Assembly: GCA_020341815.1 (NCBI GenBank)
Contig: CP070837.1
Span: 849,586 to 890,063, forward strand
Length of the DNA: 40,478 nucleotides
Origin: Candidatus Omnitrophota bacterium
Lineage (GTDB): Bacteria; Omnitrophota; Gorgyraeia; JAFGHF01
Direction: 5' to 3'
Part shown: positions 1,688 to 19,536 of the stretch, piece after piece
Layout of the letters: every line of letters begins with the position of its first letter
Numbering within the stretch: the stretch's first letter is position 1
Notes under the pieces: generated by a model
Told to the model about the DNA's origin: nothing
Databases searched by the model: none
Seen by the model: only the letters and a program-made list of their open reading frames with translations
Made by a program: the position numbers and the translations under genes

Positions 1688-2480
1688 ACCCGCAACTAAT
1701 CTTTTAGAAGCCGGTACTACAGCAGGCGGAGATTTGACCGGCACATACCCCAATCCTTCTATTGCTGATGGGGCAATCCACCAAGCACAACTTTGCACGA
1801 CAATTGGAGAAGTAAGCATATATACCAACGATTGTACTGCGTCCGCTTCTATAGCTAATGATATCTCATCGTACAGCTATACAACAAATATTTCTTTTAT
1901 TGCACCGAGAGGTGTACCAAAACCTCCTAATGTTACCCTGCCCGGAGGAGAATATGGATTTTATCCTCAAATCAAAACAAGCCCTAAGACCCGATCTGCT
2001 TATGCCCAACAAAGATATGTCCAATCTTCAGGTAAAGAGCATTGGACATTTTTACTTTACGACAAGCTTGAAAAAAAGATTATTTCTGCCTGGTCGGCGC
2101 CGGATCATCCTTGTTACGGACAAGGAGCTCAGGAAGATGAAATAGCTCATCCTTTCTGCGAATATTGGGAAAGTTCTCTGCCGGATAATTTAGAGATTAT
2201 TCTTTTAGATAATACAAAGCTCGATGAAATCAAAGCAAAAGTAATCCGCAATAAAGGCATTTTGGAAATTATTCAAGAAGAATATCAAATAGATGAGGCC
2301 TCAAGACCGGTTTATATTCCGAGAGAGATAATAGAGATAGATGAATGGGGAGATAGGAGAGGCCAGATAATAAAAACTTATGCTTCTAAAGGAATGGGAG
2401 GCAATCCTAAAGTTTTAAAAAGACGTATGGTGGAAAGCCTACCTCCTTATATTAAATATAGGTGTTTAAAGGAAAAATAA
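1272..2480 (+). CDS. Secreted fibre/adhesin-like protein, tandem paralog 2
   Basis: First ~140 aa nearly identical to 24..1256; divergent middle (TLPGGEYGFYPQIK..YAQQRYVQSS); homologous C-domain ending LPPYIKYRCLKEK. Confidence 0.65.
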   Translation: MKTLTRLILGIALLAFSLSARAEVPHLINYQVKLTDKANQPLEGAHEVTFRIYNAETQGALLWEETQEITLQKGVFSVLLGSVKELNLPFDKPYWLATKVGEDPEMTPRQQIASSGYALRAEVADTALQAANAININGKPATNLLEAGTTAGGDLTGTYPNPSIADGAIHQAQLCTTIGEVSIYTNDCTASASIANDISSYSYTTNISFIAPRGVPKPPNVTLPGGEYGFYPQIKTSPKTRSAYAQQRYVQSSGKEHWTFLLYDKLEKKIISAWSAPDHPCYGQGAQEDEIAHPFCEYWESSLPDNLEIILLDNTKLDEIKAKVIRNKGILEIIQEEYQIDEASRPVYIPREIIEIDEWGDRRGQIIKTYASKGMGGNPKVLKRRMVESLPPYIKYRCLKEK

Positions 2481-2491
2481 CCAAGCTTATT

Positions 2492-5400
2492 ATGAAACAA
2501 TTTTTCTTCAACAAGAATATTAAAAGTATCTTTAAGAAGACCGGGGCGAGTTTTCTGATTATTGCCCATCTTCTGACCTTTGGCCCGGCTGCTGAGGCTT
2601 TTCAAAGCAGCCTGGGTGAGGCGGCAATAGGAAGAGCCGAAAGCAAAAACTATATTGCCCAAAGCGGCTTTCTCTATGCCACACCTACTTCCAGCCCGCC
2701 AAAACTGATTAAATATATCCCCACCTTTATCTGGAGAAAAGGCCAAGCCCAACCCCCTACTATTGATTTGGATGAATATTTCGTAAGTCCCGACGGGCTT
2801 CCTTTAACTTATACCGTAGTGGGGGATAACCAAATAGGTGCAGAGATCGATCCTGATACCAAGATGTTAACCTTTTCCCCAGAACCAGAAGATTGGGAAG
2901 GGCAAGAAAAACCGTCTGTATTTAAAATTAAAGCCGAAGATGCAGAAGGCAACGAAACCACTAGCAACCCCTTTCTTATACCTAAAGAAAAGGACAAAAA
3001 CAATCCTCCCGTATTAGATTATATCCCTGATATCTCTGTCAATGAAACAGAACTTGTTCGAATCCTTCCCACTGTTACAAAATTAGATGATGATGAGATT
3101 AGTTATAGCTTCACTGCTCCTTTAAATGAACAAGGTGAATGGTTTACCGGATATGATGATGCCGGAGATTATATTGTTACTGTAACTGCTACTGATAGTA
3201 ATGCCATAGGCCTGAGTCATTCCCAAGATGTAAAAGTTAGTGTTAAAAACAAAAATCGCCTCCCTATTTTAGAAGAGATAGCTGACATTGAAGCAAATGA
3301 GGGCGAGCGGGTAGTAATCAGGCCCCAGGCCTCCGATCCCGATGACGACGCTTTGACATTTCATTATTCTCTGCCTTTTGATAGTCAGGGCAAATGGCTT
3401 ACCGGATATGATGATGCCGATACCTACAATATTACTGTTAAGGCCTTAGACGGCACAGATACTGTATCAAAACAGGTTAAGGTTACCGTCAATAATGTTA
3501 ACCGCGCCCCTGAAGTTAAGTTAACTCTGGATAGCTACACTGTAACACCCGGGCGCAATATGCGTATCCAGTTAGAGGCCTCCGACCCCGACGGGGATCC
3601 GCTTACTTTTTCCATTAAAAAAGACGGCGAGGAAATACATTCAGGCACTATCGATGATGGTTATCACTGCGAAGAAGAACCTTTTTCCGATATCGGTGAC
3701 TATATTGTTTCGGTAACCGTAACCGACCCGGAAGGCCTATCAGCCAAAGATACAAAAGGAGTGGATGTAATCGACCCTGATGCCGATGCCGAATATGTCA
3801 AGCCCATAATGGGTGATTTCAACGGCGATAGCCTCACAGATTTAGGATTATATAATCTTAATAAAGGGAAAATAGAGGTTTGCCTCTCCGACAAAGGCGT
3901 CTTCAGAAATACCCGCGAGTGGTCAAACTCCGGCCGCGAGCATCCTTATCCCGGGAGATTATTGCCCCTTGGCGGCGACTTCAACGGCGACGGCAGGAGT
4001 GATATAGGGCTATACAACTATGATACGGGCTTTTTCTACACATACATATCCTCAGGCAGTGATTTTGTTATAGCAGGCAAGAGGTTTCGGTTCACTGCGC
4101 TGCCCGCCGACGATTGGCAGGTATCCACCGGAAACTTCAACGGAGACAAATACACAGATCTTGTTTTCTATAACAGAAGTACCGGTGTTGTTATACTTGC
4201 CAAGGGACTCGGTAATGGTTTTGTCTTAGATGAGAATTACAGGTGGCTTCGAGATAAGGTTGGAGGATCCTACCAATGGGTTTGCCTTCCCGGCGACTTC
4301 AACGGCGACTCCTTAACGGATATATGTATATTCAAAGAAAAGACCGGCGAGGTTCGGGTTGCCCTTGCTAATGCTAATATGCACGGATTCGATGAGGCTG
4401 ATCTTTGGATAACAGGATTCGGCAAGGATATCCCTGTCGGAAACTACGAAAGCCCGATGGTCTCTGACTTTAATCATGATGGTCTGGCCGATATCGGCAT
4501 CTGGGATGATAAAAAACACAAGATAAGATACGTCCTTTCCACAGGAAATAGTTTCCGTGATAATGGAAACTGGACTGAAAGCTTTGGCACATCTGACGAT
4601 GAATCCTGCCATTTAGGAGATTTTAACGGCGATGCAATCAGCGATATGGCCTGCTTTAATAAAGAGGAGCACGGGATAAAAAGCTGGAGCCTGAAAATAG
4701 CTTCTTCTCAGCCAGCTGATCTCCTGGAAGAAATAGATAACGGCGTGGGCGGGAAAACCAAGGTTACCTATGCCACTGCCTCTGAATACCAGAATGAGGA
4801 GCTTCCTTTTCCTCTATATGTAACCAAGAATATCTCATCCATAGACAGCTTACCTGCTGATAAGCCCCAGGAAGTCTATACCCAGGAATTTTCCTATAAA
4901 GGAGGCTGGTATGATACGGAAGAACGCGAGTTCTGCGGGTTTGAAAAGGTAACCGTAACCGACCCCGCGAGCGGCAACTATACCGAGACATATTTCCATC
5001 AGGCAAAATCCGATGAGAAAGGCGCGCTCAAAGGAAAGATTGAGAAGGTATCGGCCTATGACGGCAATGGAATGCTGATCAGTGAAATCGAAAACACCTG
5101 GAAGGTGCGAAGCTCAGGAGAGGAAAGCAAGTCTTTAGGATTTCCGTATCTGGAACAAGCCCTCACCACTGTCTGGGAAGAAATCGGCACTCCCTTAACT
5201 ACAAAGGACGGCTTTCATTACGATATTGTAGGCAACATCGATGAGACCTTAAGCCTTGGCGATATAGCAACAGAGGGGGATGAAAAACGCAGCCGGATAT
5301 TTTACAACGAGCCCTATGAGGCAGGATTTAACCGGCCAAAGGAGACGCTCCTTAAAGATATAGACGGGAATATCCTTACCCGTAAGTTATTTACCGAATA

Positions 5401-8400
5401 TGACGCGCGGGGAAACTTAAAAGAAGAAAAGGTCTGGCTGTATAATCCCCTTACGCAAAGTGAAGAACTTATCCCCACAACTTATGACTATGATGACTTT
5501 GGCAACGCAATTTCCATTACCAATGCCGAAGGTAACAGCGTTACAACTAAATATGAAGATACATTTCATACATTTGCCGAGGAAGTAACCAATGCCCTTG
5601 GGCATACAGTAGAATATAATTATGACCCTGCCTTTGGCCTTGTTACTGACCTTACCGACGCCAACGGATATACTACAACCACAAAATATGATTCACTGGG
5701 TAGAGTAGTCCACACCAAGAATACATCCGGTGAAATTGTTACCAGTTATTCTTATCCTGACTTTAATACCAAGATAACCCAGCAACTAAATCTTTTAACC
5801 ACTGAACACATTGACGGCTTAGGCAGGACATATAAGACAGTCTCCAGTGGTGAAGATGGCGCAAATAGCCGCAATGTTATCACCCAGGTCTTCTATAATG
5901 AGCGGGGCTTAAAAGAAGCTGAGAGCCTGCCTCATTATGAAGGTGAAGATGAAGACAATATTTCCTATGTAAGATATGAATATGATATGCGGGGAAGGGT
6001 AAAGAAGACAACATCGGACTTCCCCGGCAGCGCCAAAGACGCCTATGCTCTAACCAGTTACATCTCCCCCTTATATACAGAGGCCCAAGACCCCAAAGGA
6101 CACAAAAAGGGTATCTTGAAAGATGTCTTTGGAAATAATATCAGAATAACAGAGTTTACCGGGGGAGGGCCTGCCTCGCCGGCAGGCGGGGTATATCACA
6201 CCAATTATAAATATGACCTTCAGGGTAATTTAAGCAAAGTTACAGACGCCAAAGGCAACATCACCCAAGTCTGGTATGATTCACTTGGCCGCAAACTAAA
6301 GATGGATGACCCGGATATGGGCGTCTGGACTTATGAATATGATAAATTAGGCAACCTGATCAAACAAACCGATGCCAAAGAGCAAACTCTCCAATTTGAA
6401 TATGACGACTTAAACCGCCTGACTAAGAAATATGCCGGATCAAAAACCTTAAGCATCTATCGCTATCGCGATGACTTAAGAAACTTGAGCTCATATACAA
6501 TTGTGACTCTGCAGGCAGAGAATAAAATCGGCCGTTTGGATGAAGTGCTTTATTTAACCGGCCGAACGGAATTCTTCTATGACTCCGAAGGAAGAGAAAT
6601 CAAATCTATCAAGTATGTTGATACCAATGCCTATAAAGTAGAGCGCACATACGATATCCTGGACCGGCTGAAGACCTTAACATATCCCGATGGAGAAGTA
6701 ATCAATTATACCTATGATACTAACTCCGGCCTCTTGGAAAAGGTCCAGGGTGAGGAAACCTATGTGCCGGATATCAGTTATAACGCCTCCGGCCAAATCA
6801 AGACTATTCAATATGGAAATGAAACAGAGACAAGCTATAATTATGGCAACGATTTGCGCCTGGAGCGCATCCTCACCAAAAATCCTACCACTTCCTTGCA
6901 GGACTTAACATATGACTTTGATAAAAACGGGAATCTCACCACCCTAACCGATAACCTAACCTCCAATATCCGCGGATACGGATATGATGATTTAGACCGC
7001 CTGATTTCTGCAGAAAATATCCCGCATTCTGCCTCTTCTCAAGGCTACACCACTCTCTGTTACCACTATGACCCCATAGGCAATATGACCTATAAGTCAG
7101 ATGCAGGAGTAATGACTTACGGCCAAAATGGCGCCGGCCCCCATGCAGTAACCTCATTACAAAGATATCAGATAACTTCCTATACCTATGATGCCAATGG
7201 CAATATGACCAATGGCAAAGATAAAGTAATGCAATATGATATAGAAAATAGACTTAGCAAGGTCGTAAAATCATCCGGCGCTACTACAGAATTTTATTAT
7301 GATGGAGATGGGGGAAGGGTAAAGAAGACCGTTGACACCACAAAGGTTACGGTGTATATTGGAAGTCTATATGAGGTTGAGCAGGGAAATATAATAACCA
7401 AACACATCTTTGCCGGCTCAAACCGCATCTGTTCTTTGAAATCTAACAATACCTCTTCCTATTACCACTCAGACCATCTTGGTTCAAGCAATGTTATCAC
7501 CGACGGAAGTGGAAACAGAATAGCCAACTATGAATATCAGCCCTATGGAAAAACATCAAAACAGACCGGCACCGATATCACCAACCACAAGTTTACCGGG
7601 AAAGAGCTTGATGATTCCACAGGCCTATACTACTATGGCGCGAGATATTATGACCCAGAGATAGGCAGGTTTATTACAGCTGATACGATAGTCCAACACC
7701 CCAACGACCCACAGGACTTAAACCGCTATGCTTATTGTCGAAACAACCCTATAAAATATGTGGATCCTACGGGGCATGGGTGGTTCAGTAAGATAATTGG
7801 GGCTATTGCCGCTGTGTTCGCCTTTATTGTCACAGGAGGACCGGCAGGAAATCCTGCTTCTGTTACGACCGCAATGGCTGTGTTCTCATCACTTGATGCC
7901 AGCATCTCAAGTTATCAGGCAGGAGCAAGCATTGGTAGGGCCATAGGAATTGGGGCTGCTTGCGGAACTGCTGCCTCTTTAGGTGGATACTTAGGTGGGA
8001 TGTTTAGTAATGCCATAGGAGGAGGTGCCTTTGGCCAACTCTTCTATGGAGCAATGGGCGCAGGCGCATTTGGAGCTGCTGCAGGCGCAGCTTTAACCGG
8101 TGGTAATGTAGGTAAGGCTGCGGCAGCAGGGGCAGCGGCAGGCGCAATTGGTGGTATGTTTGGCGCGGGAGGAAATTTCTTACTCGGTTTGGTTGGCGCA
8201 GGAGTAGCCGGCGGAACCGCCTCAAGCATCCTTGGTGAAAGCTTCGGCTCAGGCGCAGCAACAGGCGCAATTAGCTTTGTTGCCTTCTCCATAATCTCAG
8301 GTTCATTACAAGCAGCTTTGGATGCAGGGTATAGGAAAGGTGGGGTTGAGGGGAAGGTAAAGGCGGCTGAGAAAATTGCAACCTCAGCCACCTCTACAGG

Positions 8401-8644
8401 GAGCAAACACCATAACCCTTCTGATGCTTTAACTGTACAAATAGAGCCTGAAAAAATAGTTTTAGCGGAAGCAAAAAAAGAAGGTATGTCGGGTGTCTGG
8501 AAAGCATTAATCCGCCAGCTTAAAGAAAAATTGACTACACCAGATCCACCGAAAAATAAGTCTTTGCGCGAAATAGAAAGATTCATAATTGAATGGATAG
8601 ACAGATTAGGGCCATGGGTTCCATTAACTATTCAAAAAAGTTAA
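2492..8644 (+). CDS. rhs: Rhs/YD-repeat polymorphic toxin with Sec signal, Ig/cadherin-like repeats, FG-GAP (TcB-like) propeller, Rhs core and Gly-rich C-terminal toxin
   Basis: ATG 2492 gives a signal peptide ending AAEA (the track's GTG 2462 overlaps the upstream gene). Contains N-x-P-x-L/ASDPD Ig repeats, six GDFNGD-like motifs, YD repeats, FTGKELD..GLYYYGARYYDPEIGRF and NPIKYVDPTGH. Confidence 0.93.
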   Translation: MKQFFFNKNIKSIFKKTGASFLIIAHLLTFGPAAEAFQSSLGEAAIGRAESKNYIAQSGFLYATPTSSPPKLIKYIPTFIWRKGQAQPPTIDLDEYFVSPDGLPLTYTVVGDNQIGAEIDPDTKMLTFSPEPEDWEGQEKPSVFKIKAEDAEGNETTSNPFLIPKEKDKNNPPVLDYIPDISVNETELVRILPTVTKLDDDEISYSFTAPLNEQGEWFTGYDDAGDYIVTVTATDSNAIGLSHSQDVKVSVKNKNRLPILEEIADIEANEGERVVIRPQASDPDDDALTFHYSLPFDSQGKWLTGYDDADTYNITVKALDGTDTVSKQVKVTVNNVNRAPEVKLTLDSYTVTPGRNMRIQLEASDPDGDPLTFSIKKDGEEIHSGTIDDGYHCEEEPFSDIGDYIVSVTVTDPEGLSAKDTKGVDVIDPDADAEYVKPIMGDFNGDSLTDLGLYNLNKGKIEVCLSDKGVFRNTREWSNSGREHPYPGRLLPLGGDFNGDGRSDIGLYNYDTGFFYTYISSGSDFVIAGKRFRFTALPADDWQVSTGNFNGDKYTDLVFYNRSTGVVILAKGLGNGFVLDENYRWLRDKVGGSYQWVCLPGDFNGDSLTDICIFKEKTGEVRVALANANMHGFDEADLWITGFGKDIPVGNYESPMVSDFNHDGLADIGIWDDKKHKIRYVLSTGNSFRDNGNWTESFGTSDDESCHLGDFNGDAISDMACFNKEEHGIKSWSLKIASSQPADLLEEIDNGVGGKTKVTYATASEYQNEELPFPLYVTKNISSIDSLPADKPQEVYTQEFSYKGGWYDTEEREFCGFEKVTVTDPASGNYTETYFHQAKSDEKGALKGKIEKVSAYDGNGMLISEIENTWKVRSSGEESKSLGFPYLEQALTTVWEEIGTPLTTKDGFHYDIVGNIDETLSLGDIATEGDEKRSRIFYNEPYEAGFNRPKETLLKDIDGNILTRKLFTEYDARGNLKEEKVWLYNPLTQSEELIPTTYDYDDFGNAISITNAEGNSVTTKYEDTFHTFAEEVTNALGHTVEYNYDPAFGLVTDLTDANGYTTTTKYDSLGRVVHTKNTSGEIVTSYSYPDFNTKITQQLNLLTTEHIDGLGRTYKTVSSGEDGANSRNVITQVFYNERGLKEAESLPHYEGEDEDNISYVRYEYDMRGRVKKTTSDFPGSAKDAYALTSYISPLYTEAQDPKGHKKGILKDVFGNNIRITEFTGGGPASPAGGVYHTNYKYDLQGNLSKVTDAKGNITQVWYDSLGRKLKMDDPDMGVWTYEYDKLGNLIKQTDAKEQTLQFEYDDLNRLTKKYAGSKTLSIYRYRDDLRNLSSYTIVTLQAENKIGRLDEVLYLTGRTEFFYDSEGREIKSIKYVDTNAYKVERTYDILDRLKTLTYPDGEVINYTYDTNSGLLEKVQGEETYVPDISYNASGQIKTIQYGNETETSYNYGNDLRLERILTKNPTTSLQDLTYDFDKNGNLTTLTDNLTSNIRGYGYDDLDRLISAENIPHSASSQGYTTLCYHYDPIGNMTYKSDAGVMTYGQNGAGPHAVTSLQRYQITSYTYDANGNMTNGKDKVMQYDIENRLSKVVKSSGATTEFYYDGDGGRVKKTVDTTKVTVYIGSLYEVEQGNIITKHIFAGSNRICSLKSNNTSSYYHSDHLGSSNVITDGSGNRIANYEYQPYGKTSKQTGTDITNHKFTGKELDDSTGLYYYGARYYDPEIGRFITADTIVQHPNDPQDLNRYAYCRNNPIKYVDPTGHGWFSKIIGAIAAVFAFIVTGGPAGNPASVTTAMAVFSSLDASISSYQAGASIGRAIGIGAACGTAASLGGYLGGMFSNAIGGGAFGQLFYGAMGAGAFGAAAGAALTGGNVGKAAAAGAAAGAIGGMFGAGGNFLLGLVGAGVAGGTASSILGESFGSGAATGAISFVAFSIISGSLQAALDAGYRKGGVEGKVKAAEKIATSATSTGSKHHNPSDALTVQIEPEKIVLAEAKKEGMSGVWKALIRQLKEKLTTPDPPKNKSLREIERFIIEWIDRLGPWVPLTIQKS

Positions 8645-8654
8645 TTGGAAGGAT

Positions 8655-9050
8655 ATGATAATGTTTAAGCAAAATATTGGAATAGCCTTATTAAGTTGGT
8701 TTATAATAATTTTTGCTATTATAAATAGCATAACGGCTACGATTGGAATCTACCTGTATTTGACTAACTCTTCGGAAGGCATATCGCTATTTTTAGTAAT
8801 GTTAAGAGCTGTGTTTGCAATTGCATTTTTTATTCTAGGGATTGAAATTATAAAATTGCGCCTTTGGGCGCGGATGATAACTATAGCAACAGCAAGTATT
8901 TTTTTAATCTTTGATTGCATAAAAATAATATTAAAAGCTAGCTTACAACAACTTTCCGATAAATTTATTTTCATAATTATTAGTATGTGTATAAATTTAA
9001 TTATTATTTATTTCTTGAATAAGCCTAGCGTAAAGGAACAGTTTAAATAG
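8655..9050 (+). CDS. Putative membrane immunity protein (3-4 TM) for the Rhs C-terminal toxin
   Basis: Starts 10 bp after the rhs stop, RBS GGAAGG, AT-rich, hydrophobic. Confidence 0.7.
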   Translation: MIMFKQNIGIALLSWFIIIFAIINSITATIGIYLYLTNSSEGISLFLVMLRAVFAIAFFILGIEIIKLRLWARMITIATASIFLIFDCIKIILKASLQQLSDKFIFIIISMCINLIIIYFLNKPSVKEQFK

Positions 9051-9498: not shown

Positions 9499-10389
9499 AT
9501 GGAAAGTAAGGATTATTTAAAAGATTTTTTTGTTGAAGACGAACACAGCTTTAAAAAGGAACAAATTATTTCTTTAATTAGTAGATGTAAAAAATTTGCT
9601 AAACTTGTAGGTAGAAAAGGTCAAGTACACATCGAAAAGAAAAATTTAACAGGTACAGATAAAATTAAACTTCTTTTAGCAACTCGTTATTTAGGCGCGG
9701 AGTTAGCTAAATTGGAACCCGGACTAAAAATTTCTCCAGAAATTGCGAATGTTCATACCGCTGATATAGCAAAGTTATTATCTGTGTCAGATGATAATGC
9801 CCGAACTAGAGTATCAGATTTAATCCATGAAAATTTTGGTAAAAAACCGGAAAAGGGATATATTCGTATATATCCACATCATATTAATAAGTTTTTAGAT
9901 ATGCTTGAAAAAGAAGAACAAAAAAAGGAAAGAACTTTCAGTAAACAATCTTCAAGTAAGAAAAAAAAGAAGGGGGCCTTGGAGGATAAAAAAGTAAATA
10001 TAGACCAAATATTTAAGCGTTTATCTACACATTTAAATATCACAGAAAGGGTTCTTCAAGATTATATATTTATTAAAGATGATGGAAGTTTTAAATTTAA
10101 TAACTATTTTACCGGTAAGTCGAAGCACAATAAACAGAGTAAAGGAATTTTAAGTACAGCGTTTGTTATAGTTATAGGATTAGGTGCGACAACTTTTTCT
10201 AGTTGGCAGGTAAAAAAAGTTTGTTTTAATAGTAATATCGATGTAACTGGTCTAAATTATACAATAAGAGAATTAAAAAATGGTGGATATATATCTAAGG
10301 CTAATAAATATTCTCGAGATAATATAATTTTAGAAAAAGGTAAAAATAAAGCAAGAGAAATATTTAACGAATTGTGTAATATAAAATGA
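9499..10389 (+). CDS. Hypothetical protein with winged-HTH-like segments
   Basis: RBS GGAGG; TADIAKLLSVSDDNARTRVSDL HTH-like motif; second wHTH-like segment near the C-terminus; AT-rich. Confidence 0.6.
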   Translation: MESKDYLKDFFVEDEHSFKKEQIISLISRCKKFAKLVGRKGQVHIEKKNLTGTDKIKLLLATRYLGAELAKLEPGLKISPEIANVHTADIAKLLSVSDDNARTRVSDLIHENFGKKPEKGYIRIYPHHINKFLDMLEKEEQKKERTFSKQSSSKKKKKGALEDKKVNIDQIFKRLSTHLNITERVLQDYIFIKDDGSFKFNNYFTGKSKHNKQSKGILSTAFVIVIGLGATTFSSWQVKKVCFNSNIDVTGLNYTIRELKNGGYISKANKYSRDNIILEKGKNKAREIFNELCNIK

Positions 10390-11168
10390 TAAATGAGTTT
10401 ATTCAAGAATATTTCGATATTGTCAAATTTTCTAAAGCCCATAAAAAATATATAAGGGGCAATAAATCAAAACGGCGCCTAAGTGATTTTTATGAAAAAA
10501 GTTGGTTGCCATATTCGCGAAATTTTGAAAAAATATTTGGCAAAAAAGATCATGACATCATAGAAGGGGCTCTATATTCAATTTATAAGCTCTGCAAAAA
10601 AGATTTTATTGAGAAAAAAAGGATAAAATCTATACTTAATTTGACAACGCCAACTATCGAGAATATAAAACTAAATTTAATTAGGGACTTTGGATTTATA
10701 ATCGAAAGAGGACAAAAAGAAAATATTATAGAGATATTAAAAAATGCTGGTTTTGAAAGTACCATTATATATATTGAGGATGCAGAAAATGATTTTAAGA
10801 ATGGTAAATCGAAATCAACATGTACAAATACTAGACATGCTATAGACGAATTCTTTAGAGAATTTAGAGAAAAAGTATTTAAAAAATCTATTTCGGGAGT
10901 AACTGCATCAGAACATATAGCAGCCTTAAATAATAAACTTAAAATTCCAACATCTGAACAATCTTTATTGAAAAATGGTATATATGTTTTCTTAAGTCAT
11001 AAAGGTGGACATGGAACAACCGATAGACCTTCATTAGAAGACGCAAAATTATCAATAAATCTTATCTATATTTGTTTTGAATATTTTTTAAATAAATATA
11101 ATAAATATTTCAATAAAACTAAAGAAACAAATCCATTTTTTGCTGCGCCATTCAAATTCAACTTATAA
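10386..11168 (+). CDS. Hypothetical protein with an Abi_C/HEPN-like C-terminal domain (possible defence effector)
   Basis: ATGA overlap with the upstream gene; AENDF..STCTNTRHAIDEFF..FLSHKGGH..EDAKLSINL pattern resembles helical HEPN/Abi_C folds (inference). Confidence 0.5.
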   Translation: MINEFIQEYFDIVKFSKAHKKYIRGNKSKRRLSDFYEKSWLPYSRNFEKIFGKKDHDIIEGALYSIYKLCKKDFIEKKRIKSILNLTTPTIENIKLNLIRDFGFIIERGQKENIIEILKNAGFESTIIYIEDAENDFKNGKSKSTCTNTRHAIDEFFREFREKVFKKSISGVTASEHIAALNNKLKIPTSEQSLLKNGIYVFLSHKGGHGTTDRPSLEDAKLSINLIYICFEYFLNKYNKYFNKTKETNPFFAAPFKFNL

Positions 11169-11213
11169 AAATTCCAAAACTAAAAGTTCTTTTATTTTCA
11201 TAGGGAGGTTCAT

Positions 11214-11477
11214 ATGACCGAAGAAGTGGGATATGGGGTATTTCGAAATATTCACCCAAGCGAAACAGGTAAAAGAGTTACGCTTCACAAATTACCTTGT
11301 CATCATTATAAGCAACACTTAAAAAAAGGAACAGCAAAAGCAAAAGGGATGTATACATTCCACAAAGACTGCAGGACCTTTCAAGAAGCAGTGGAAAGGG
11401 CTTCTCTCGAGTCTTTAGAATGGCATGCACCAATTAAAGTTTGCAAAGGTTGTCTTAAGAATTGGAATCTTGTTTAA
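11214..11477 (+). CDS. Small His/Cys (possibly Zn-binding) hypothetical protein
   Basis: RBS GGGAGG; LHKLPC..VCKGC motif. Confidence 0.6.
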   Translation: MTEEVGYGVFRNIHPSETGKRVTLHKLPCHHYKQHLKKGTAKAKGMYTFHKDCRTFQEAVERASLESLEWHAPIKVCKGCLKNWNLV

Positions 11478-11752: not shown

Positions 11753-11766
11753 TTTTTTTTACCCTC

Positions 11767-11786
11767 TACTTCACAATTGTGTAGTA
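11767..11786. promoter_or_regulatory. 20-bp palindrome, candidate operator
   Basis: TACTTCACAATTGTGTAGTA (one mismatched pair), between the HTH gene and the ATPase-recombinase genes. Confidence 0.45.
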
Positions 11787-11805
11787 AATAATGAAGGGAA
11801 AAGCT

Positions 11806-11967
11806 ATGATACATTTACACTTCAACCGCCGCAGACCCTTAGGACTTAACAAGCTTCTTTATGCTCAGGCCCTTGGTTTGATTATAAAGAAGCTCTTGGG
11901 CCTTAAAAGGTTGATAAGGCGCCTGGGGCTGGAGATAGAGCTTGACTGCAAAATCATCTTCAAATAG
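11806..11967 (+). CDS. Small basic hypothetical protein (53 aa)
   Basis: RBS GAAGGGA; MIHLHFNRRRPLGLNKLLYAQALGLIIKKLLGLKRLIRRLGLEIELDCKIIFK; fills the gap before the ATPase. Confidence 0.45.
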   Translation: MIHLHFNRRRPLGLNKLLYAQALGLIIKKLLGLKRLIRRLGLEIELDCKIIFK

Positions 11968-11977
11968 GGCTAAAGAG

Positions 11978-13102
11978 ATGGATAAGGCTAAAGAACTGTT
12001 AAAGAATGGTGATATATTAAAGCAGGTTATCCGGGATATGGATATCTTAGGATATGTAGGGGAAGAGGAAAATAAGATATTGGGCTATTTAATAGCTATC
12101 TCCCGCAAGCTTGATCAGCCCCTTTCCGGTATCGTGGTCTCCTCATCCGGGGCAGGGAAAAGCAGGCTGGTGGATACGTTAGAGCAGCTTACTCCAGCTG
12201 AGGATGTAGTCTTTACCTCAAGGCTTACTTCACAGTCTCTTTACTATATGCAGAAGGACTTCCTAAGGCATAAGCTTCTGATAGTAGAGGAAAGGCACGG
12301 CTCTGAGCTTGCTGACTATCCCATCAGGACATTACAGTCAAAGGGTGTGCTTTCCCTGGCGATACCTATTAAGAATAGGACGGTCTTCTTTGAAGTAAAG
12401 GGGCCGGTAAGTATCTTAGAGACTACCGTCTCCTGTAAGCTTAACTTAGAGAACACATCGCGCTGCTTTATCCTGCACCTGGATGAATCAGAGGAACAGA
12501 CCCGGCTTATCCACAGATACCAGAGACAGGCCAGGACTAAAGAGAGGCTTAAACTGCAGCAAAAGGCTCAAGGCATCATCAGGCTGCACCAGGATATGCA
12601 GAGGCTGATTAAGCCCTGCGCGGTAATTATTCCTTATGCCAATAAGTTAACCTTTCCCGCAAACAGTCCTTCATCCAGGCGTGAACATCAGAAATTTCTC
12701 ACCCTCATTGAGGCAATAGCCCTGTTATACCAATACCAGAGAAGAAAGATTGTCCACAACGGCTTAGTCTTCATTGAAAGCGCTATTCAGGACTATGAGA
12801 TTGCCTTTGATATATTCAGCAAGGTTTATCGGGATACATTGCTGACGCATCACTCCAAATCGGCTGTCTTGCTGGCTAAGATACTAAGGCTGAAGAAGTC
12901 TGTCTTTAGCAGGGAAGATATAGCTAAGTTCAGCGGCTGGCCTAATTATAAGGTAAGGGATAATATCAGATATTTAGAAGAGGCCGGGATATTAAGGATT
13001 ATCCGCAACGGAAAGGGAAAGAGAACTCTATATAAGCTGAATAGCCATCTTAAGCTGACCAAACCCGAAGAACTAAGAAAAAGAGGCACTTCTACAAGTT
13101 AA
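11978..13102 (+). CDS. AAA+/MCM-like P-loop ATPase with C-terminal wHTH (helicase-like module of primase-type integrative elements, without CHC2/Toprim)
   Basis: GYVGEEENK..SRKL..Walker A SSGAGKS, Walker B LLIVEE, SR arginine finger, C-terminal HTH (SREDIAKFSGW..VRDNIRYLEEAG). ATG 11978 preferred over TTG 11942. Confidence 0.75.
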   Translation: MDKAKELLKNGDILKQVIRDMDILGYVGEEENKILGYLIAISRKLDQPLSGIVVSSSGAGKSRLVDTLEQLTPAEDVVFTSRLTSQSLYYMQKDFLRHKLLIVEERHGSELADYPIRTLQSKGVLSLAIPIKNRTVFFEVKGPVSILETTVSCKLNLENTSRCFILHLDESEEQTRLIHRYQRQARTKERLKLQQKAQGIIRLHQDMQRLIKPCAVIIPYANKLTFPANSPSSRREHQKFLTLIEAIALLYQYQRRKIVHNGLVFIESAIQDYEIAFDIFSKVYRDTLLTHHSKSAVLLAKILRLKKSVFSREDIAKFSGWPNYKVRDNIRYLEEAGILRIIRNGKGKRTLYKLNSHLKLTKPEELRKRGTSTS

Positions 13103-13106: not shown

Positions 13107-14774
13107 ATGATAACAAATAAGTTACCTTCAGTTAAAGAGCTCATTAGGCAATATCAGGATTACCTTGCCAGTAAAGAAGCCGGGGGAGTAAGATATCTTT
13201 CCGTGCTTAAATATCTAACCGAATATACGGAAAGAGCCGATATAAAAGATATAGCCTTAATCAATGAAGAAAGTCTGCTTGAATTTCAGCTATATCTTTA
13301 TGATGAATATGACTTTACCTTTGAGACGGTAAGAACGATGTTTTACACCTTAAAGAGGTTTTTCGCTTATCTGATGGAAAATAACCTGATTAAGGAGAAT
13401 CTTCTTTATAAGGTAGAAATTATCCCCAAACCCCAACCTAAGAAAATCATCAGCCGTTATTATTCCTTTGATGAGCTGATTAGTAGATACCTCAACTATA
13501 GAAAAAGCCACCTAAGCTACGGCTATCTTATCCAGGTAGAAAAACATTTAAAAGGATATTTTCGTTATTTAAGAGGTAAAGGCATAAAAAGCGTTTATTC
13601 TGTTACTGAAGGAAGCCTCTTAGAATACAGAGACTTCCTCTGGCAGGAATATGAGCAGGGAGAAAAGGACTCTCTTATGCCTGAGAGCCAGATTGAGCGC
13701 TTAGGCACTGTTTGCCGCTTCTTCAGATATTTATATAAGGAAGGCCTGTTAAGAGATAATCCCGCTCTTAATCTGGCCTGGAAAGACTACTTCCATAAAT
13801 TACGCCAGAGGCCTAAGAAAAGCAAGGAGATAAAGGCAGTAACTTCACCCCTGGATGAATTGAAGCAGAAGTTTATCGATTATGAAAAGACCAAAGGAAA
13901 GTCATTAAGTACACTCTCCAGTTACAAAAAAGGCCTGGAGGTCTTCTTTGGATATATGCAAAGCAAAGGCCTAAGCAGCATGGCCCAGATAGGCAAGAGA
14001 CATCTTATGGAATACTATCCTTACCTTTATAATTACCGCGGCATTAGAAATTACCCGGTAGGTATGCAGTCCAAGGCCAAGTATCTCTGGGCCTTGAGGT
14101 TATTCTTTAAGTTCCTGATCCGCTTTGATTATCTGCCTTATGACGCTTCATTTGACTTAGAGCCCATCAAAGAGGAAAAGCCTCTTCCTAAGGATTACCT
14201 TAATCAGAAGGAAGTGTTTTATCTTTTGAATCAGCCTGGATCATCGGATTCCTTGAGTATCCGTGATAAGGCAATACTTGAAGTACTATTCTCAACAGGT
14301 ATGCGCAACAATGAACTCTGCCAGCTCAATATCGCTGATATAGACTTCCAGCAGGAAATGGTCAGGGTCAGTCATCCTAAAGGAGGCAGCAGCCGCCAGA
14401 GAATAGTCCCTGTAGGCCAGAGAAGCCTTAATTATCTAAATAGTTATTTAGCAAAAGCCCGGCCTGAGCTGGCAAATGGTGACCCTCAGGCCTTATTTTT
14501 GTCCTACTCCGGCAAGAGGATTAAAACCGAAGCTGTGTTAAACATTGTTAAAAAGTATGCCTTTCGATGCGGCTTCCGAAAGAATATCACCCCGCATTCC
14601 CTGCGAGTTACCTGCGCCACTCTTATGCTGAAATACAAGGCCGGCCTAAGATATGTCCAGGAGCAGTTAGGCCACAGGAGCATCCGCTCAACTCAAATAT
14701 ATACCCGGCTTATTCCTTTGGACCTGAAACTGGTCCATCAGAGATGTCATCCGGGGGAGAGAATAGACAGATGA
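13107..14774 (+). CDS. XerC/D-family tyrosine recombinase with three tandem SAM-like core-binding domains
   Basis: Catalytic residues TGMRNNE (R), PKGG (K), HSLR, LGH, TQIY; three repeats ending RFFAYL/RFFRYL/LFFKFL. Confidence 0.92.
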   Translation: MITNKLPSVKELIRQYQDYLASKEAGGVRYLSVLKYLTEYTERADIKDIALINEESLLEFQLYLYDEYDFTFETVRTMFYTLKRFFAYLMENNLIKENLLYKVEIIPKPQPKKIISRYYSFDELISRYLNYRKSHLSYGYLIQVEKHLKGYFRYLRGKGIKSVYSVTEGSLLEYRDFLWQEYEQGEKDSLMPESQIERLGTVCRFFRYLYKEGLLRDNPALNLAWKDYFHKLRQRPKKSKEIKAVTSPLDELKQKFIDYEKTKGKSLSTLSSYKKGLEVFFGYMQSKGLSSMAQIGKRHLMEYYPYLYNYRGIRNYPVGMQSKAKYLWALRLFFKFLIRFDYLPYDASFDLEPIKEEKPLPKDYLNQKEVFYLLNQPGSSDSLSIRDKAILEVLFSTGMRNNELCQLNIADIDFQQEMVRVSHPKGGSSRQRIVPVGQRSLNYLNSYLAKARPELANGDPQALFLSYSGKRIKTEAVLNIVKKYAFRCGFRKNITPHSLRVTCATLMLKYKAGLRYVQEQLGHRSIRSTQIYTRLIPLDLKLVHQRCHPGERIDR

Positions 14775-14906
14775 TACGGCCTAACTTCTTGAAATCAAGA
14801 GAGGTTTTGTGCTTTACTTTTGATATTGGCTGGCGTACAATAATCCTAAGGGAATTTATACCCGGAATTTACTGGGATAAAAAGAAGAAGTGGAGGAAAT
14901 AGAAGG

Positions 14907-15257
14907 GTGAATATTAAAGAAAAAAGAGGTATCGCATTAATCTCCGTTTCAATAATCGCTATCTTTATTTTTAGTATTTTTCGGGGAGTAAAAACTTTTT
15001 CAAATATTGAAGATTATATAGATAGCTATATGTATATGAAGGCTTCAAAATTTAAGTTAATTTTAGCAACAATTGTAGAAGCGTGTGCTTTATTTATACT
15101 ATTATTTAGGGACAAATTTTCTGAAAAAATGGCAGCAAAAAGTAAAAAATATTCAATTGGGTATTACAAATTAGCTATTACTTTAATGCTTAGTTACGTT
15201 CTTCTAATAAGCATAATACATAAGTCATTTATATTATACTTACTAATGGGTTACTAA
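14907..15257 (+). CDS. Small membrane protein (about 3 TM), likely orphan immunity gene
   Basis: GTG start, AT-rich, hydrophobic; resembles the other immunity genes in size and context. Confidence 0.5.
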   Translation: MNIKEKRGIALISVSIIAIFIFSIFRGVKTFSNIEDYIDSYMYMKASKFKLILATIVEACALFILLFRDKFSEKMAAKSKKYSIGYYKLAITLMLSYVLLISIIHKSFILYLLMGY

Positions 15258-15432
15258 AACTTCTAAGAATAAAAACATAAATGGGCCAACAGCACAGCAA
15301 AATATCAAAAAGTAGAGCAATAATGGTCGAAAAGTCGGGAAAAATCAGGGAAATCAGGGAGCGCAATACCTGTTTCCTTGACATTTCAAATTTCCAAACC
15401 GAAATTTTGGAATTTAACATAGTAGAATAAAT

Positions 15433-15520
15433 CTACAGCTAAAAAGTTAGATATTTTAGCGTAGGTAGTCAATTTTAGCTCTTTGTCAAAGCAGAAGTCC
15501 AACACTCCGCCCAAGAGTGT
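15433..15520 (+). repeat. 88-bp att-like repeat, copy 1
   Basis: 85/88 identical to 17342..17429; contains GCTAAAA-N9-TTTTAGC plus a third TTTTAGC; ends at T|GACCC of the Rhs core. Confidence 0.92.
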
Positions 15521-16429
15521 GACCCGGAGCTCGGTCGCTTTATCACCGCCGACACCATTGTCCAGGCTCCCTATGATCCGCAGAGCTTAAACAGATATGC
15601 CTATTGCAGGAATAACCCCATCAAGTACGTTGATCCAACGGGGCATAGTTGGTTTAAAAAGTTTTTTAGTAAAATAGCAGGTTTTTTTGCTGCCGTTATA
15701 ACTTTTGCCGGCACAGGCGGCAATGCAGCTGCTGCCTTTACTGCCTTTAATGTTGTCGATACCTTCTTTAGTGGTGCTCGAGCAATTGCACATGGTGCTC
15801 CTCCTGGTAGAATCTTTGCTGCAATAGGAATATCTCTTACTTTAAATACAATAATTCCTTTTCCTGATATAGGAAATCTGGCTTTACAATTAACAGTTGC
15901 AGCAGCCAGAGGCGCTTTTATATCTGTTGCCACTAATGCTATCATTAACAAAGGCGGAAAACTTGGGTCCGCTGCCGCCTGGGGTGCTGGAATGGGCGCT
16001 GTATCTGGATTTCTTGGATCCCAACAGTATCAGAATTGGCGAAAAGGCAAAGGATTTGTGTCAAATAAACAAGCTGATGCAAGACGAAAGGCTAGAAATA
16101 GCGCTAGAACAACATCGGGTTCTGTTAAGATAAAAAAATCTTCTGATGGGCGCGCGCAAGACAGCTTAGAAGTAAATGAAGGAAGAATAGTGATAGCAAG
16201 AGGAGATAAAAGCCATGTCGTTGAAGGAGCTAAAGCTGCGGGCAAGGCGGCAGCAGACACCATTACAGGCGTCCCTGCATTTGGAGCCGTAGAGATAGCT
16301 GGCGAAATGGCAAAGACACTCCCTAAGGTTATGGAACGTAATCAAAGGATGTATGAAGAATATGAAGAAAGTGGATTAGGAGAAATATTTGGGCCTAATC
16401 CATGGAAAGACCTTCCTCGTAGTAAATAG
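15521..16429 (+). pseudogene. Silent Rhs C-terminal cassette 1 (no start codon; core DPELGRF..YVDPTGH plus toxin tip)
   Basis: Open frame of 302 codons starting DPELGRFITADTIVQAPYDPQSLNRYAYCRNNPIKYVDPTGH; the track ORF 15992..16429 is only its 3' half. Confidence 0.88.
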
Positions 16430-16481
16430 GAATTTTTTTAACGATTGATTGTACAATATATACTTTTAAGATTTTAAGAAA

Positions 16482-17306
16482 ATGCGTTCTGTAAAAGTTA
16501 AAAGAATATTTTTAACCATTGCATTACTTGTGATTTTATCATGGGTAACAAGTTTTGTTTACCATTTCATAATATTTATTCATGCTCGGAACACTCTGAG
16601 AAAAATATTTATTGAAGGTGTTCTTACTGAAATTGATCAAATTGATCTTTTGCATAAGAAAGGAATTCCTGCGACAAGCCTATTGATTGGTTTGTTAAAA
16701 GATGATAATGATTTAGTGAAAATAAATGCGATGGTTTTACTTGCAGAATTTGAAAGTCATGAAGCTGCACCATCACTAGCTAAATTATTAAAAAGCGATA
16801 ATTGGCGTGTTAGGTTTTTTGCCTCCCATGCGCTGGGTAGAATAAGCGATAAAGGAACAGTGGATAGCTTGGCAAAGGCTTGGTTGGAAGAAAACGATTT
16901 AAGAGTGGCCAGAGAAATTGCAATAGCGGTAGGCAAAATAGGGGATAAAAAGGCAGCTCCAGCCTTTATAAAAACATATAAAGATAAAGATGAAAAAATT
17001 AAAATACTATCCTCATTAATTCTATATAAATTGCTAAGTAAAGAAGGATACTTTAATGATATAAAAGAAGCAATCCATAATAAAGATGACAAGCTGAGAC
17101 TTATGACAGTTTGGACGCTTGGAGAGATAGAAGACCAAAGAATAATTCCTTTGTTAGAAGAAGCTCTAGTAGATAGTAATCAAAAAGTTAGGGAATTTGC
17201 ACAGAAATCAATCGAAAAAATAAATAGTAAAGTAAGCAACAATAACACACGGAAATCCGATGAAATCGAAATCAGGAAACAAGATATTAATTTCCTGAAT
17301 AAATAA
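16482..17306 (+). CDS. N-terminally membrane-anchored HEAT-repeat protein, putative immunity for cassette 1
   Basis: TM helix, then repeated LLKD..VR..A..ALG.I HEAT motifs; directly follows toxin tip 1. Confidence 0.75.
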   Translation: MRSVKVKRIFLTIALLVILSWVTSFVYHFIIFIHARNTLRKIFIEGVLTEIDQIDLLHKKGIPATSLLIGLLKDDNDLVKINAMVLLAEFESHEAAPSLAKLLKSDNWRVRFFASHALGRISDKGTVDSLAKAWLEENDLRVAREIAIAVGKIGDKKAAPAFIKTYKDKDEKIKILSSLILYKLLSKEGYFNDIKEAIHNKDDKLRLMTVWTLGEIEDQRIIPLLEEALVDSNQKVREFAQKSIEKINSKVSNNNTRKSDEIEIRKQDINFLNK

Positions 17307-17341: not shown

Positions 17342-17429
17342 CTACAGCTAAAAAGTTAGATATTTTAGCGTAGGTAGTCCATTTTAGCTCTTTGTCAAAG
17401 CAGAAGTCCCACACTCCGCCCAATAGTGT
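17342..17429 (+). repeat. 88-bp att-like repeat, copy 2
   Basis: Offset 1909 from copy 1; three substitutions, one of which makes an in-frame TAG just before the cassette. Confidence 0.92.
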
Positions 17430-18422
17430 GACCCAGAGATAGGCAGGTTTATTACTGCTGATACCATAGTCCAAGATTCGTCTGACCCCCAGAGCTTAAA
17501 CAGATATGCCTATTGCAGGAACAACCCCATCAAATATGTGGATCCTAGTGGGCATTTTTTCCAGATAATTCTCGGAGCCATCATTGGGGCAATCATCGGG
17601 GTAGCAGTTTCAGCAGCTACAGGTGGTGACATAGGAAAGGGAGCCATCACAGGTGCAATTGGTGGTGCCTTCTTTGGCTTCGTAGGAGGATTTAAACTCT
17701 CAGGAGTAGTTAAAGCTCTTGCCCATACCTGGGCAGGGGCAGCATCAGGAGCATTAGGTGCCATTGCTACTGGTGGCGATGTAGGCATGAGCGCCCTGAT
17801 AGGAGGGGCGGCTGCAGGTGTTACCTGTGGTATAGCTAATGTCATTCCGGGTTTTAAAGGAGATGGCTTAGGTGCCTTCCTTGGCAACCTTGTCCTTCGT
17901 AGCGGTATTGGAGCTGCAATTGGAGGTGGTATTTCCTCAGCCACAGGTGGAGATTTCGCCTATGGAGCAAAACAGGGGGCTATAAGTGCAGGGATTGCAT
18001 ATACGGCTAATTGCGGGTTGAGTAAGGTCTTGCATGGAGACAAAGAATCAAAACTCGCTTCTACTCAAGAAGAAGTCGACAAGATTGCTTGGCAACGTAA
18101 GCACGATCCTAATATGAGAATGGGAGGATGGCCTATTTATACTGATAAAGGGCCCAGCAAAACTTATACTTTGGGCGATTTGGTTAGCTGGAAAACTTGG
18201 ACAGGAGTAATTTTAATAGGAGCTGGTGGCAAAATAATGTTTGCACCTGTTCCTGGTGCTCGTTTAGTCGGTGGTGTAATGATTCTTGGAGGAGGAGCAC
18301 TGACTGCTTGGAGTATGATAGAAAGCACTAAAACAGCACATGATTTAGCTACCGATATAGGAGAAATTGCAACTGAACAATATAAAGAAGAATGGGAAGA
18401 AATTGATAATAATTTGAAATAA
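17430..18422 (+). pseudogene. Silent Rhs C-terminal cassette 2 (core DPEIGRF..YVDPSGH, glycine zipper, hydrophobic-hairpin tip)
   Basis: Open frame starting DPEIGRFITADTIVQDSSDPQSLNRYAYCRNNPIKYVDPSGH; the track's GTG 17538 is the V of YVDP, not a real start. Confidence 0.88.
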
Positions 18423-18473: not shown

Positions 18474-18785
18474 ATGGAATTAACCGAAAAAGATAAAACA
18501 TTTATTACCTATTATCAGAACCAATATAGAATTTATATATTCTTTTTTGTATTTATATTTTTATTCGCTAGTTTTCAACTATATATGTTATTTGGAAAGT
18601 TTATTCCTATCTATACTGCAGCCTTTCAAAAGACACCCAAGTTAAGTACTTTTGTCCAATTCGGCTTGATAAAAATGGCGGTATTCAATTTGATATGGAT
18701 TGCTCTATTAATTGGAGCATTAATAGGAAGTTTTTCCAGCTATAAGAAAACTAAATCAATAATAAATAAATTGATGAAATCATAA
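18474..18785 (+). CDS. 2-TM putative immunity protein for cassette 2
   Basis: RBS GGAGG, two hydrophobic segments, AT-rich, follows the toxin tip. Confidence 0.7.
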   Translation: MELTEKDKTFITYYQNQYRIYIFFFVFIFLFASFQLYMLFGKFIPIYTAAFQKTPKLSTFVQFGLIKMAVFNLIWIALLIGALIGSFSSYKKTKSIINKLMKS

Positions 18786-18873: not shown

Positions 18874-19536
18874 ATGGCAAGAATAGCGAGAGTCGTTGTT
18901 CCTGAATTCCCTCACCACATAATCCAAAGAGGCAATCGTCGGCAGAAAGTATTCTTCAATGAAGATGACTATAGCCAATATCTTAGATTGCTCAATACTT
19001 ATTCGCATCAATTTAAGGTAGATATTCTGGCTTATTGTTTAATGCCTAACCATATACACCTTATCGCAACTCCCCATGAGGATAGAAGCCTGGCTCAAGC
19101 CATAGGCGAAACCCACCGTAATTATACAAGGTTTATTAATTTTAGAGAAAACTGGCGGGGATATCTCTGGCAGGGAAGATTCTCATCATATGTTCTTGAC
19201 GAAAGGTACTTATTGGCTGCAACCCGGTATATACTTTTAAATCCTGTAAAAGCAAAATTGGCAAAGAAGCCATGGGATTATGAATGGTCAAGCACCAAGC
19301 ATCATATGATGATAGATAATGACTCTTTGGTAAAAGATAGCCTTTTAAAAACACTTGTAGAAAATTGGAAAGATTTTCTTAATGCCGCATCGCCCGATGA
19401 GGACGTCCGGTTGTTTCAACTACATGAAAGAACGGGACGCCCCTTAGGAGATAATACATTTATAGAAAAACTGGAATCTCTTCTCAAGATAAATCTTAAA
19501 AAGAAGAGAGCGGGGCGGAAGAAAAAAGAGAAATAG
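18874..19536 (+). CDS. REP-associated tyrosine (HUH, Y1_Tnp) transposase
   Basis: PHHIIQRGNRRQ, YCLMPNHIHL (HUH), LWQGRF, YILLNPVKA, WSS motifs. Confidence 0.93.
   Translation: MARIARVVVPEFPHHIIQRGNRRQKVFFNEDDYSQYLRLLNTYSHQFKVDILAYCLMPNHIHLIATPHEDRSLAQAIGETHRNYTRFINFRENWRGYLWQGRFSSYVLDERYLLAATRYILLNPVKAKLAKKPWDYEWSSTKHHMMIDNDSLVKDSLLKTLVENWKDFLNAASPDEDVRLFQLHERTGRPLGDNTFIEKLESLLKINLKKKRAGRKKKEK

Follow-up and report, generated by a model that had tools for sequence, protein, structure and literature searches.

A tyrosine recombinase with three core-binding domains beside Rhs orphan tips in an Omnitrophota genome: a candidate enzyme for in-frame tip exchange

How Rhs and other polymorphic toxins gain new tips while keeping the old ones has been an open question. 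Jackson et al. (2009; PMC2935791) described the displacement of Rhs C-termini as homologous recombination in which the core repeats are identical and the core fragments differ in length, and Kirchberger et al. found no evidence that an integrase helps in the insertion of effector-immunity pairs (Kirchberger et al., 2017). The present analysis concerns a stretch of 40,478 nucleotides (nt) from a Candidatus Omnitrophota bacterium, called the window throughout, which carries an Rhs orphan-tip array: behind a full rhs gene stand tips that lack a start codon and retain a fragment of the rhs core, each with a small gene downstream. Between the full gene and the orphan tips lies a gene for a tyrosine recombinase of 555 amino acids (aa; positions 13107..14774, plus strand). 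This recombinase probably serves as integrase to an element not described before, whose in-frame insertion at the end of the rhs core displaces the old tip. A literature search for rhs or polymorphic toxins together with tyrosine recombinase, integrase or site-specific recombination returned no such system in titles and abstract openings, subscription journals lying outside its scope.

The window resembles the loci of Jackson et al. in its full rhs gene, its start-less tips with a core fragment and an immunity gene, and its proposed circular intermediate. It differs from the 2009 model in having a dedicated recombinase, a breakpoint fixed at the codons for D-P, and repeats, the core-end blocks of the proposed attL and attR, that are only 71-82% identical. 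Since homologous recombination would be expected to leave identical repeats, this value fits the site-specific insertion of foreign DNA. A second comparison is offered by the rAID arrays of Bacteroidales (PMC12247911), (rAID, recombinase-associated acquired interbacterial defence), in which a predicted tyrosine recombinase heads a co-oriented array of orphan genes that belong to interbacterial antagonism, with conserved intergenic motifs. The rAID arrays hold immunity genes only and serve defence, whereas the window carries toxin tips with immunity genes, aimed in frame at rhs. The two layouts are similar as compared by description, and not by recombinase sequence.

Integrons (IntI, attI and attC; 2a3v) likewise have a recombinase gene beside a primary site, stacked cassettes and palindromic separators, and the newest insert in the window is apparently the one nearest the recombinase, as judged against a strain in public run X2. 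The recombinase nevertheless scored below the cut-offs of TIGR02249 (84.6 vs 265) and NF011946 (42.7 vs 435). The cassettes here are also the 3' ends of genes and need in-frame fusion, and the recombinase travels with the unit, as at the related locus L008 described below.

Among the Xer enzymes (XerC, XerD and XerA; 1a0p, 5hxy), the likeness is confined to residues 245-555, which comprise one core-binding (CB) domain and a catalytic domain with the RKHRHY residues. Two further CB domains stand in front of this unit, and the gene sits in rhs loci and does not serve dif. The protein falls below the NCBIfam cut-offs for XerD (TIGR02225, 251.5 vs 329.6) and XerC (TIGR02224, 226.7 vs 335.15), and the window genome has separate ordinary Xer-like genes, two in number (306 and 337 aa), in addition to a second three-CB paralog of 35-36% identity. 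Because of its 555 aa and three CB domains, the recombinase lies outside the XerC/XerD class of about 300 aa with a single CB domain. Lambda-type integrases resemble the recombinase in the logic proposed for it, by which one enzyme holds both crossover and accessory sites with an attP arm of about 90 bp, and integration takes place at the 3' end of a conserved gene while supplying a replacement end. The arm-binding domain of lambda integrase is a small beta-sheet fold. In contrast, the N-terminal modules of the recombinase are duplicated four-helix CB bundles (Z 13-14) with no arm-binding fold other than CB, and the target here is a protein-coding gene whose replaced end encodes a different toxin.

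Tandem arrays of one to six recombinase-type CB domains have been described in type III effectors as a DNA-binding module (PLoS Biol 2026; PMC13667924). These arrays lack a catalytic domain, whereas in the window the array is carried by an intact recombinase. A search of the tandem-CB literature, with the same scope as above, found the architecture only in proteins without a catalytic domain.

Domain architecture and family of the recombinase

The recombinase consists of three homologous CB (SAM-like) four-helix domains at about residues 5-108, 116-229 and 246-345 (CB1, 13119-13430; CB2, 13452-13793; CB3, 13842-14141), followed C-terminally by a full Xer-type catalytic domain (14196-14753), all on the plus strand. 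In a Pfam scan of the whole protein, Phage_integrase (PF00589) matched residues 364-535 with an E-value of 6.5e-39 and 133.9 bits against a cut-off of 27.1, Phage_int_SAM_5 matched three stretches, and Phage_int_SAM_1 matched residues 258-339. When the segments were scanned alone, residues 1-110 matched SAM_5 (E 9.8e-6), residues 245-358 matched SAM_1 (E 2e-8), and residues 111-244 gave no Pfam match. The second segment is a CB domain despite this absent match. BLASTP between single domains gave 30% identity over 99 aa for the first and second (E 2.6e-8), 27% over 89 aa for the second and third (E 5e-7) and 23% over 57 aa for the first and third (E 1.4e-4). Profile-profile comparison with hhalign, based on 15 family members, gave probabilities of 98.8%, 99.3% and 99.5% for the same three pairs, against 0.1-0.2% for each CB domain with the catalytic domain.

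The fold of the N-terminal part was modelled using AlphaFold2 and a 20-sequence alignment. Residues 1-245 form two four-helix bundles in the model, with a mean predicted local distance difference test score (pLDDT) of 88.5 and a predicted template-modelling score of 0.81. Using VIA-align, residues 116-229 of the model superposed on 3nrw (Z 14.2, root-mean-square deviation 1.7, 104 residues aligned), residues 120-223 on residues 3-100 of XerD (Z 12.8, deviation 1.2, 89 aligned), and residues 5-108 on the core-binding domain of lambda Int (5j0n_E 72-173; Z 13.1, deviation 2.4, 99 aligned). A Foldseek search with the 1-245 model returned nothing at E <= 0.001, the top match being 3nrw at 1.3e-3. 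The model of the whole protein has a mean pLDDT of only 63.5, with the catalytic part poorly modelled, and its Foldseek matches are Xer, IntI and lambda Int.

In the catalytic domain, alignment with E. coli XerD (1a0p) puts R400, K425, H497, R500, H523 and Y532 at its RKHRHY positions, and R400 and K425 are invariant in alignment A1. These residues presumably have the catalytic roles of their XerD counterparts. The recombinase matched XerD in phmmer with an E-value of 1.2e-34, and residues 245-555 superposed on whole Xer proteins of 294-337 aa with a template-modelling score of 0.84-0.90, normalised by the hit. CB3 and the catalytic domain are thus a complete Xer-type unit by themselves, and because this unit alone superposes on entire Xer proteins, the first 245 residues are a true addition. 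A first-pass annotation of the window, made from its letters alone, had proposed a triplicated core-binding domain before an intact catalytic domain, on motifs that lie at residues 82, 202 and 330; Pfam, BLASTP, hhalign, AlphaFold2 with VIA-align and the XerD alignment together confirm it. It had staked this proposal on the N-terminal segments being SAM-like, and the superposed model shows that they are core-binding folds.

Relatives of the recombinase were sought in two large collections. A word search of 5.8 billion clusters with the N-terminal 250 residues matched only 5 proteins, and an exhaustive HMMER search of 1.84 billion proteins gave 40 representatives at E <= 0.001, so the family is rare. 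No relative was found in the viral contigs searched. Pfam was run on 25 of the 40 representatives, of which 23 have a catalytic domain, and the number of CB domains was read from the position at which that domain starts. The start lies at 345-398 in 11 of the scanned proteins, which is the three-CB size, at 252-324 in five, about the two-CB size, and at 496-563 in three, which leaves room for at least four CB domains. Two catalytic domains are present in 4 of the 25, all of them distant matches. These four proteins (P0030, P0036, P0038 and P0045, 644-786 aa) each combine CB domains with a pair of complete catalytic domains, and could be head-to-tail recombinase fusions or merged gene calls.

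The extra domains appear to have arisen within a single recombinase. The 715-aa enzyme of locus L008 has four CB domains, the first two of which are a recent duplicate with clearly similar copies, and its architecture arose when CB1 alone was duplicated. The number of CB domains in the family thus changes through internal duplication. The stretches between CB domains are only about 8-35 residues long and hold no remnant of a catalytic domain. The alternative that the extra domains derive from the fusion of a tandem recombinase pair, also raised in the first-pass annotation, therefore lacks support and was dropped as the origin, although the proteins with two catalytic domains among the distant matches still leave some room for it.

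Linkage to rhs genes and the leader

The surroundings of the recombinase were compared over 14 loci (the window, L007, L008, L010-L013, L025-L027, L045 and L047-L049). Besides the window genome, these come from four metagenome contigs, one contig of a metagenome-assembled genome and seven more genomes from the phylum of the window; a sample of the phylum was positive in 3 of 400 genomes beyond that of the window and a sample of the class in 6 of 400, with two genomes in both. A second phylum search returned genomes already sampled and added no loci. L009 was dropped from the count as an ordinary Xer that matches residues 255-549 only. A piece of rhs adjoins the recombinase in all 14 loci. It was found by tblastn or motif search in 13, and by eye in L045, a 2.3-kb contig with 336 nt downstream, as a YD-repeat peptide. 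The linkage of homologs to rhs, on which the first-pass annotation had made its reading depend, thus holds across the family. In the window genome, the second three-CB locus has the order rhs, immunity gene, large ATPase, recombinase, start-less orphan tip and Y1 transposase, and both loci follow the order rhs, immunity gene, cargo, recombinase, start-less orphan tip and Y1 transposase. These two loci account for all the rhs material of the genome, namely its only two full rhs genes and three orphan core ends. The window, L007, L012 and L027 have a full rhs gene upstream of the recombinase, and cargo of the mobile-element type lies between the two genes.

In the window, the main rhs gene with its current toxin tip (2462..8644, plus strand) encodes 2060 aa with Pfam matches to RHS_repeat (4.1e-32), TcdB_toxin_midN and FG-GAP. 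Its core ends in ...GLYYYGARYY-DPEIGRF...YVDPTGH, and the 126-nt core-end block from DPEIGRF to DPTGH (7652..7777, plus strand) was defined by alignment as repeat family D2. The similarity of the orphans to the main gene starts exactly at the D codon of DPE(I/L)GRF, on the side of the main gene at GACCC, and the attL junction is proposed at this codon (7652). The two orphan tips, both on the plus strand and without a start codon, are tip 1 (15521..16429), which begins with DPELGRF, and tip 2 (17430..18422), which has a stop codon two codons before DPEIGRF. Each orphan is preceded by a leader, which is non-coding DNA outside the rhs repeat itself. Leader 1 (15433..15520, plus strand) comprises a 32-nt palindrome, CTACAG..GCGTAG (15433-15464), a ATTTTAGCTCTTTG box and a short hairpin, and ends at the D codon. 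Leader 2 (17342..17429, plus strand) is 96.6% identical to leader 1, against only about 71-83% for the adjoining coding blocks.

The same breakpoint recurs in other loci. For 12 orphans in 10 loci, the D(P) codon of DPxxGRF is the point from which the sequence resembles rhs, and L008, which has the same leader and spacing abutting non-rhs DNA, brings the leader loci to 11. In these 11, a 32-nt CTAC..GTAG palindrome (CTACAG-N20-CTGTAG) with 13-6-13 symmetry starts 88-89 nt before the D(P) codon or, in L008, before the junction with non-rhs DNA, and a box of the ATTTyGCTCTTT type lies about 9 nt past it. A similar GCTCTTTGA box lies 25-45 nt ahead of the palindrome in most loci. The spacing is fixed in this way in loci whose recombinases are mutually only 42-60% identical. 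Sites of tyrosine recombinases classically show such 13-6-13 symmetry. CTAC..GTAG palindromes of at least this degree of symmetry number two in the window genome against 0-1 in shuffles, and the leader itself is present in just two copies in 1.55 Mb, on which ground a genome-wide repeat of the repetitive extragenic palindromic type was rejected.

Element insertion, cassette capture and other readings

In the proposed mechanism, the element would run, from 5' to 3', from GAYCC and the last 42 codons of the rhs core through a toxin tip, an immunity gene, cargo and, in some elements, a P-loop protein to the recombinase gene and the 88-nt leader. In the circular form the leader would abut GAYCC, and this joint would be attP. 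The partner site of attP would lie in the last YD repeat (YY-DPxxGRF) of an rhs gene on the chromosome, at its D-P codons, with catalysis by the enzyme at the leader/rhs junction, and the product would be the resident core fused in frame to the tip that arrives with the element. The previous tip would move downstream together with its immunity gene and become a start-less orphan behind the leader, and excision would reverse the insertion and expose the orphan again. CB3 and the catalytic domain would act at the crossover, while the two extra CB domains would hold the palindrome and boxes of the leader, an arm-binding-like function made from duplicated CB domains. That the extra domains read the boxes of the repeat, as the first-pass annotation had suggested, is plausible. 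The full proposal of a dedicated site-specific recombination system, in which multi-CB integrases swap Rhs tips in frame and the duplicated CB domains read an 88-bp arm of palindrome and box, is put at about even chances.

Evidence for movement of the whole unit comes from L008. The unit there (6562-12245, from core end to leader) sits between an nfnA-like and a gltD-like gene, which are adjacent in 6/6 relatives by tblastn and 26-35 nt apart in the three whose intergenic sequence was read. At the left edge the chromosome is followed by TGATCCC and the core end, starting at the D-P codons of the tip's core end, and at the right edge the end of the leader is followed by TGATCCC and the chromosome, TGATCCC being a 7-bp flanking repeat. 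The L008 unit is thus a discrete insertion flanked by a short direct repeat, and its edges place the crossover at the leader/GAYCC junction and indicate that the recombinase travels with the tip. Positions 12243-12320 of this locus, which include a hairpin, have copies of 87-92% identity on contigs C26 and C8 of the same genome and are a dispersed repeat. In L011, an 86-aa C-terminal remnant of a second recombinase stands directly before the leader of the second orphan, as serial insertions of whole elements would leave behind.

Strain variation was followed by placing the public contigs of four runs on the window. On a contig of run X1, a different rhs core is joined to DNA like that of tip 1 exactly at 15521. 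In run X2, the strain shares the rhs core, the P-loop gene and the recombinase with the window but shows nothing at 7683-11200, which means a different tip and different cargo. One contig of this run, 7236 nt in length, also lacks a segment of 2496 nt (14839-17334; joint 14838->17335) that contains a membrane open reading frame, leader 1, tip 1 and a HEAT gene. The edges of this segment are a 10-nt direct repeat AATAATCCTA (14839-14848 and 17335-17344, plus strand), which overlaps the first 3 nt of the palindrome and could reflect either a recombination joint of another type or a deletion through microhomology.

Several observations weigh against the insertion of a whole element at the rhs core end. 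Distant members of the family join rhs elsewhere, L007 at 44 nt upstream and L049 and L045 inside the core, and a full rhs gene lies upstream in only four of the eight loci with at least 5 kb of upstream sequence; none is present in L013, L026 and L047 within 9.9, 7.4 and 6.9 kb, respectively. The L008 unit is at a non-rhs site, its right flank holds sequence repeated elsewhere in the genome, which prevents a clean reconstruction of the empty site, and no exact TGATCCC was found in the nfnA-gltD intergenic DNA of relatives. All the loci belong to a single phylum and some of them to related genomes, so they do not count as 14 independent events. The leaders beside enzymes with two, three and four CB domains look alike, so that the number of boxes does not track the number of CB domains and no tie is seen between extra domains and boxes. 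The contigs of the four runs contain no excised circle or empty rhs site, an absence that in contigs alone proves nothing. Finally, the edges of the 2496-nt segment lie at the 10-nt repeat on the left edge of the palindrome and not at the D-P codons, and in L025 an MNT-HEPN pair, consisting of a nucleotidyltransferase (MNT) gene and a HEPN gene (500-1754, minus strand), lies between two copies of palindrome and box. This pair is a cassette other than a toxin tip, placed between the recombinase gene and the orphan tip, and together with the 2496-nt edges it fits cassette capture at the leader better than integration of a whole element.

The last two observations, together with the higher identity of the two window leaders than of the coding blocks beside them, favour an integron-like platform, in which a resident recombinase would use the leader just behind its own gene to capture small circles that bring in tips, immunity genes or genes of other kinds, and the main rhs gene would swap its tip later by homologous recombination through the 126-nt core-end block. 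The leader directly follows the recombinase gene in most loci, as attI lies beside intI, and the segment that separates the window from run X2 lies between recombinase and leader. As a full account this platform is unlikely: in L008 the recombinase, leader and tip are inserted as one unit outside rhs, where the 7-bp repeat coincides with the leader/GAYCC junction, the remnant in L011 shows whole elements stacking, and the genes carried between rhs and recombinase are those typical for self-contained mobile elements. The integration of elements and integron-like capture can both be true, and capture of small cassettes at the leader may also occur, to which the difference from run X2 and the MNT-HEPN pair of L025 point.

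A less probable explanation, which is very unlikely, assigns the palindrome to a terminator or regulatory hairpin, or to a target of the Y1 transposase, with the tyrosine recombinase acting elsewhere. The palindrome lies just past the stop codon of the recombinase, as a terminator would, yet its stem is AT-rich and no T run follows, conservation extends to its sequence and to its spacing from the D codon, neither of which a terminator requires, and its 13-6-13 symmetry is of the kind typical of tyrosine-recombinase sites. Y1 enzymes act on hairpins. A Y1 gene closes the array in four loci, namely the window (18874..19536, plus strand; IS200-like, Y1_Tnp 3.2e-14), L007 (7387..8043), L026 (8619..9206) and L027 (12049..12624). 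Each of these genes stands between the arms of an inverted repeat of its own, GGGACACAAYAC (GGGGACACAATAC / GTATTGTGTCCCC in the window), which is unrelated to the leader palindrome, and the Y1 transposase was rejected on this ground as the enzyme acting on it. The least probable explanation, an ordinary island integrase whose proximity to rhs reflects shared variable regions and whose extra CB domains are a neutral duplication, draws on the frequency of integrases in such regions, on a small one-phylum family whose shared ancestry could inflate the linkage and on the four of eight sufficiently long loci that lack a full upstream rhs gene, but it is very improbable in view of an rhs piece beside the recombinase in every locus, a common breakpoint and 88-89-nt spacing in 11 loci despite the divergence of their recombinases, the shared arrangement of the two paralogs in the window genome, and the retention of two to four CB domains over 40 representative clusters.

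Neighbouring genes and meaning for Rhs toxins

The remaining genes of the window are arranged around the main rhs gene and its orphans. Directly upstream, and overlapping the rhs start, are two tandem paralogous genes (24..1256 and 1272..2480; 410 and 402 aa) that are 58% identical, have no Pfam family and could encode proteins with an accessory or adaptor role for Rhs. The rhs stop codon is directly followed by the gene for a hydrophobic membrane protein of 131 aa (8655..9050, plus strand), which has no Pfam family and is the putative immunity partner of the current tip. It is followed by low-GC cargo (9499..11477, plus strand) with open reading frames of 296, 260 and 87 aa, which match no Pfam or PHROG family and are not present in the strain of run X2; the GC content over 9001-11000 is 0.26-0.28. 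Four nt before the recombinase start ends a gene for a 386-aa P-loop protein with a C-terminal winged-helix domain (11942..13102, plus strand). Sequence searches of Pfam, NCBIfam, PHROGs and PDB gave it only weak matches (AAA_22/Zeta_toxin P-loop, FaeA and DnaD-like phrog_186 at 1.3e-5). A homolog of 57% identity occupies the same position in L025, and the gene is retained in run X2.

Downstream of the recombinase, the membrane open reading frame of the 2496-nt segment (14907..15257, plus strand; 116 aa, no family found, not in run X2) may be a lone immunity gene. The putative immunity partner of tip 1 is a 274-aa HEAT-repeat protein (16482..17306, plus strand; HEAT_2, 2.3e-26), and that of tip 2 a 103-aa membrane protein with no Pfam family (18474..18785, plus strand). 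The position of these small genes behind the tips suggests their immunity roles, and a Pfam scan of the window tips found no toxin family.

In other loci the tips and cargo are more readily recognised by family. The tip of L013 is barnase-like with a Barstar gene behind it, and a SUKH-1 gene follows the tip in L012. The cargo of L012 (2704-9622) includes a TIR protein and a DUF3987/RepB-primase protein, and that of L013 (3543-7665) an EcoO109I-type restriction enzyme, a Dcm methylase, Vsr, a MazG-like protein and a serine resolvase; both are defence-like or mobile-element-like. In L007, the small gene after the paralogous rhs gene (4369..4677) recurs within its array at a distance of about 11.8 kb (16151..16456), with 59% protein identity and 86% DNA identity over 152 nt, and this copy could be an archived immunity gene.

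Taken at its present strength, the analysis indicates that the insertion of new tips into rhs, until now ascribed to ordinary recombination, is probably carried out by this recombinase family. The family offers a candidate enzyme, a candidate site and a defined crossover point, and the question of how new tips are gained is now testable by standard recombination assays. The enzymes appear to have gained extra DNA-binding heads by duplicating their own CB domain, so that two, three or four copies are found, and if the proposal is true, tyrosine recombinases would here have acquired an arm-binding function by a route not seen before. Rhs C-terminal displacement would then be enzymatic in at least one phylum, and not only the outcome of homologous or illegitimate recombination, and elements or cassettes of this kind would spread new tips between genomes and archive the old tips together with their immunity genes.

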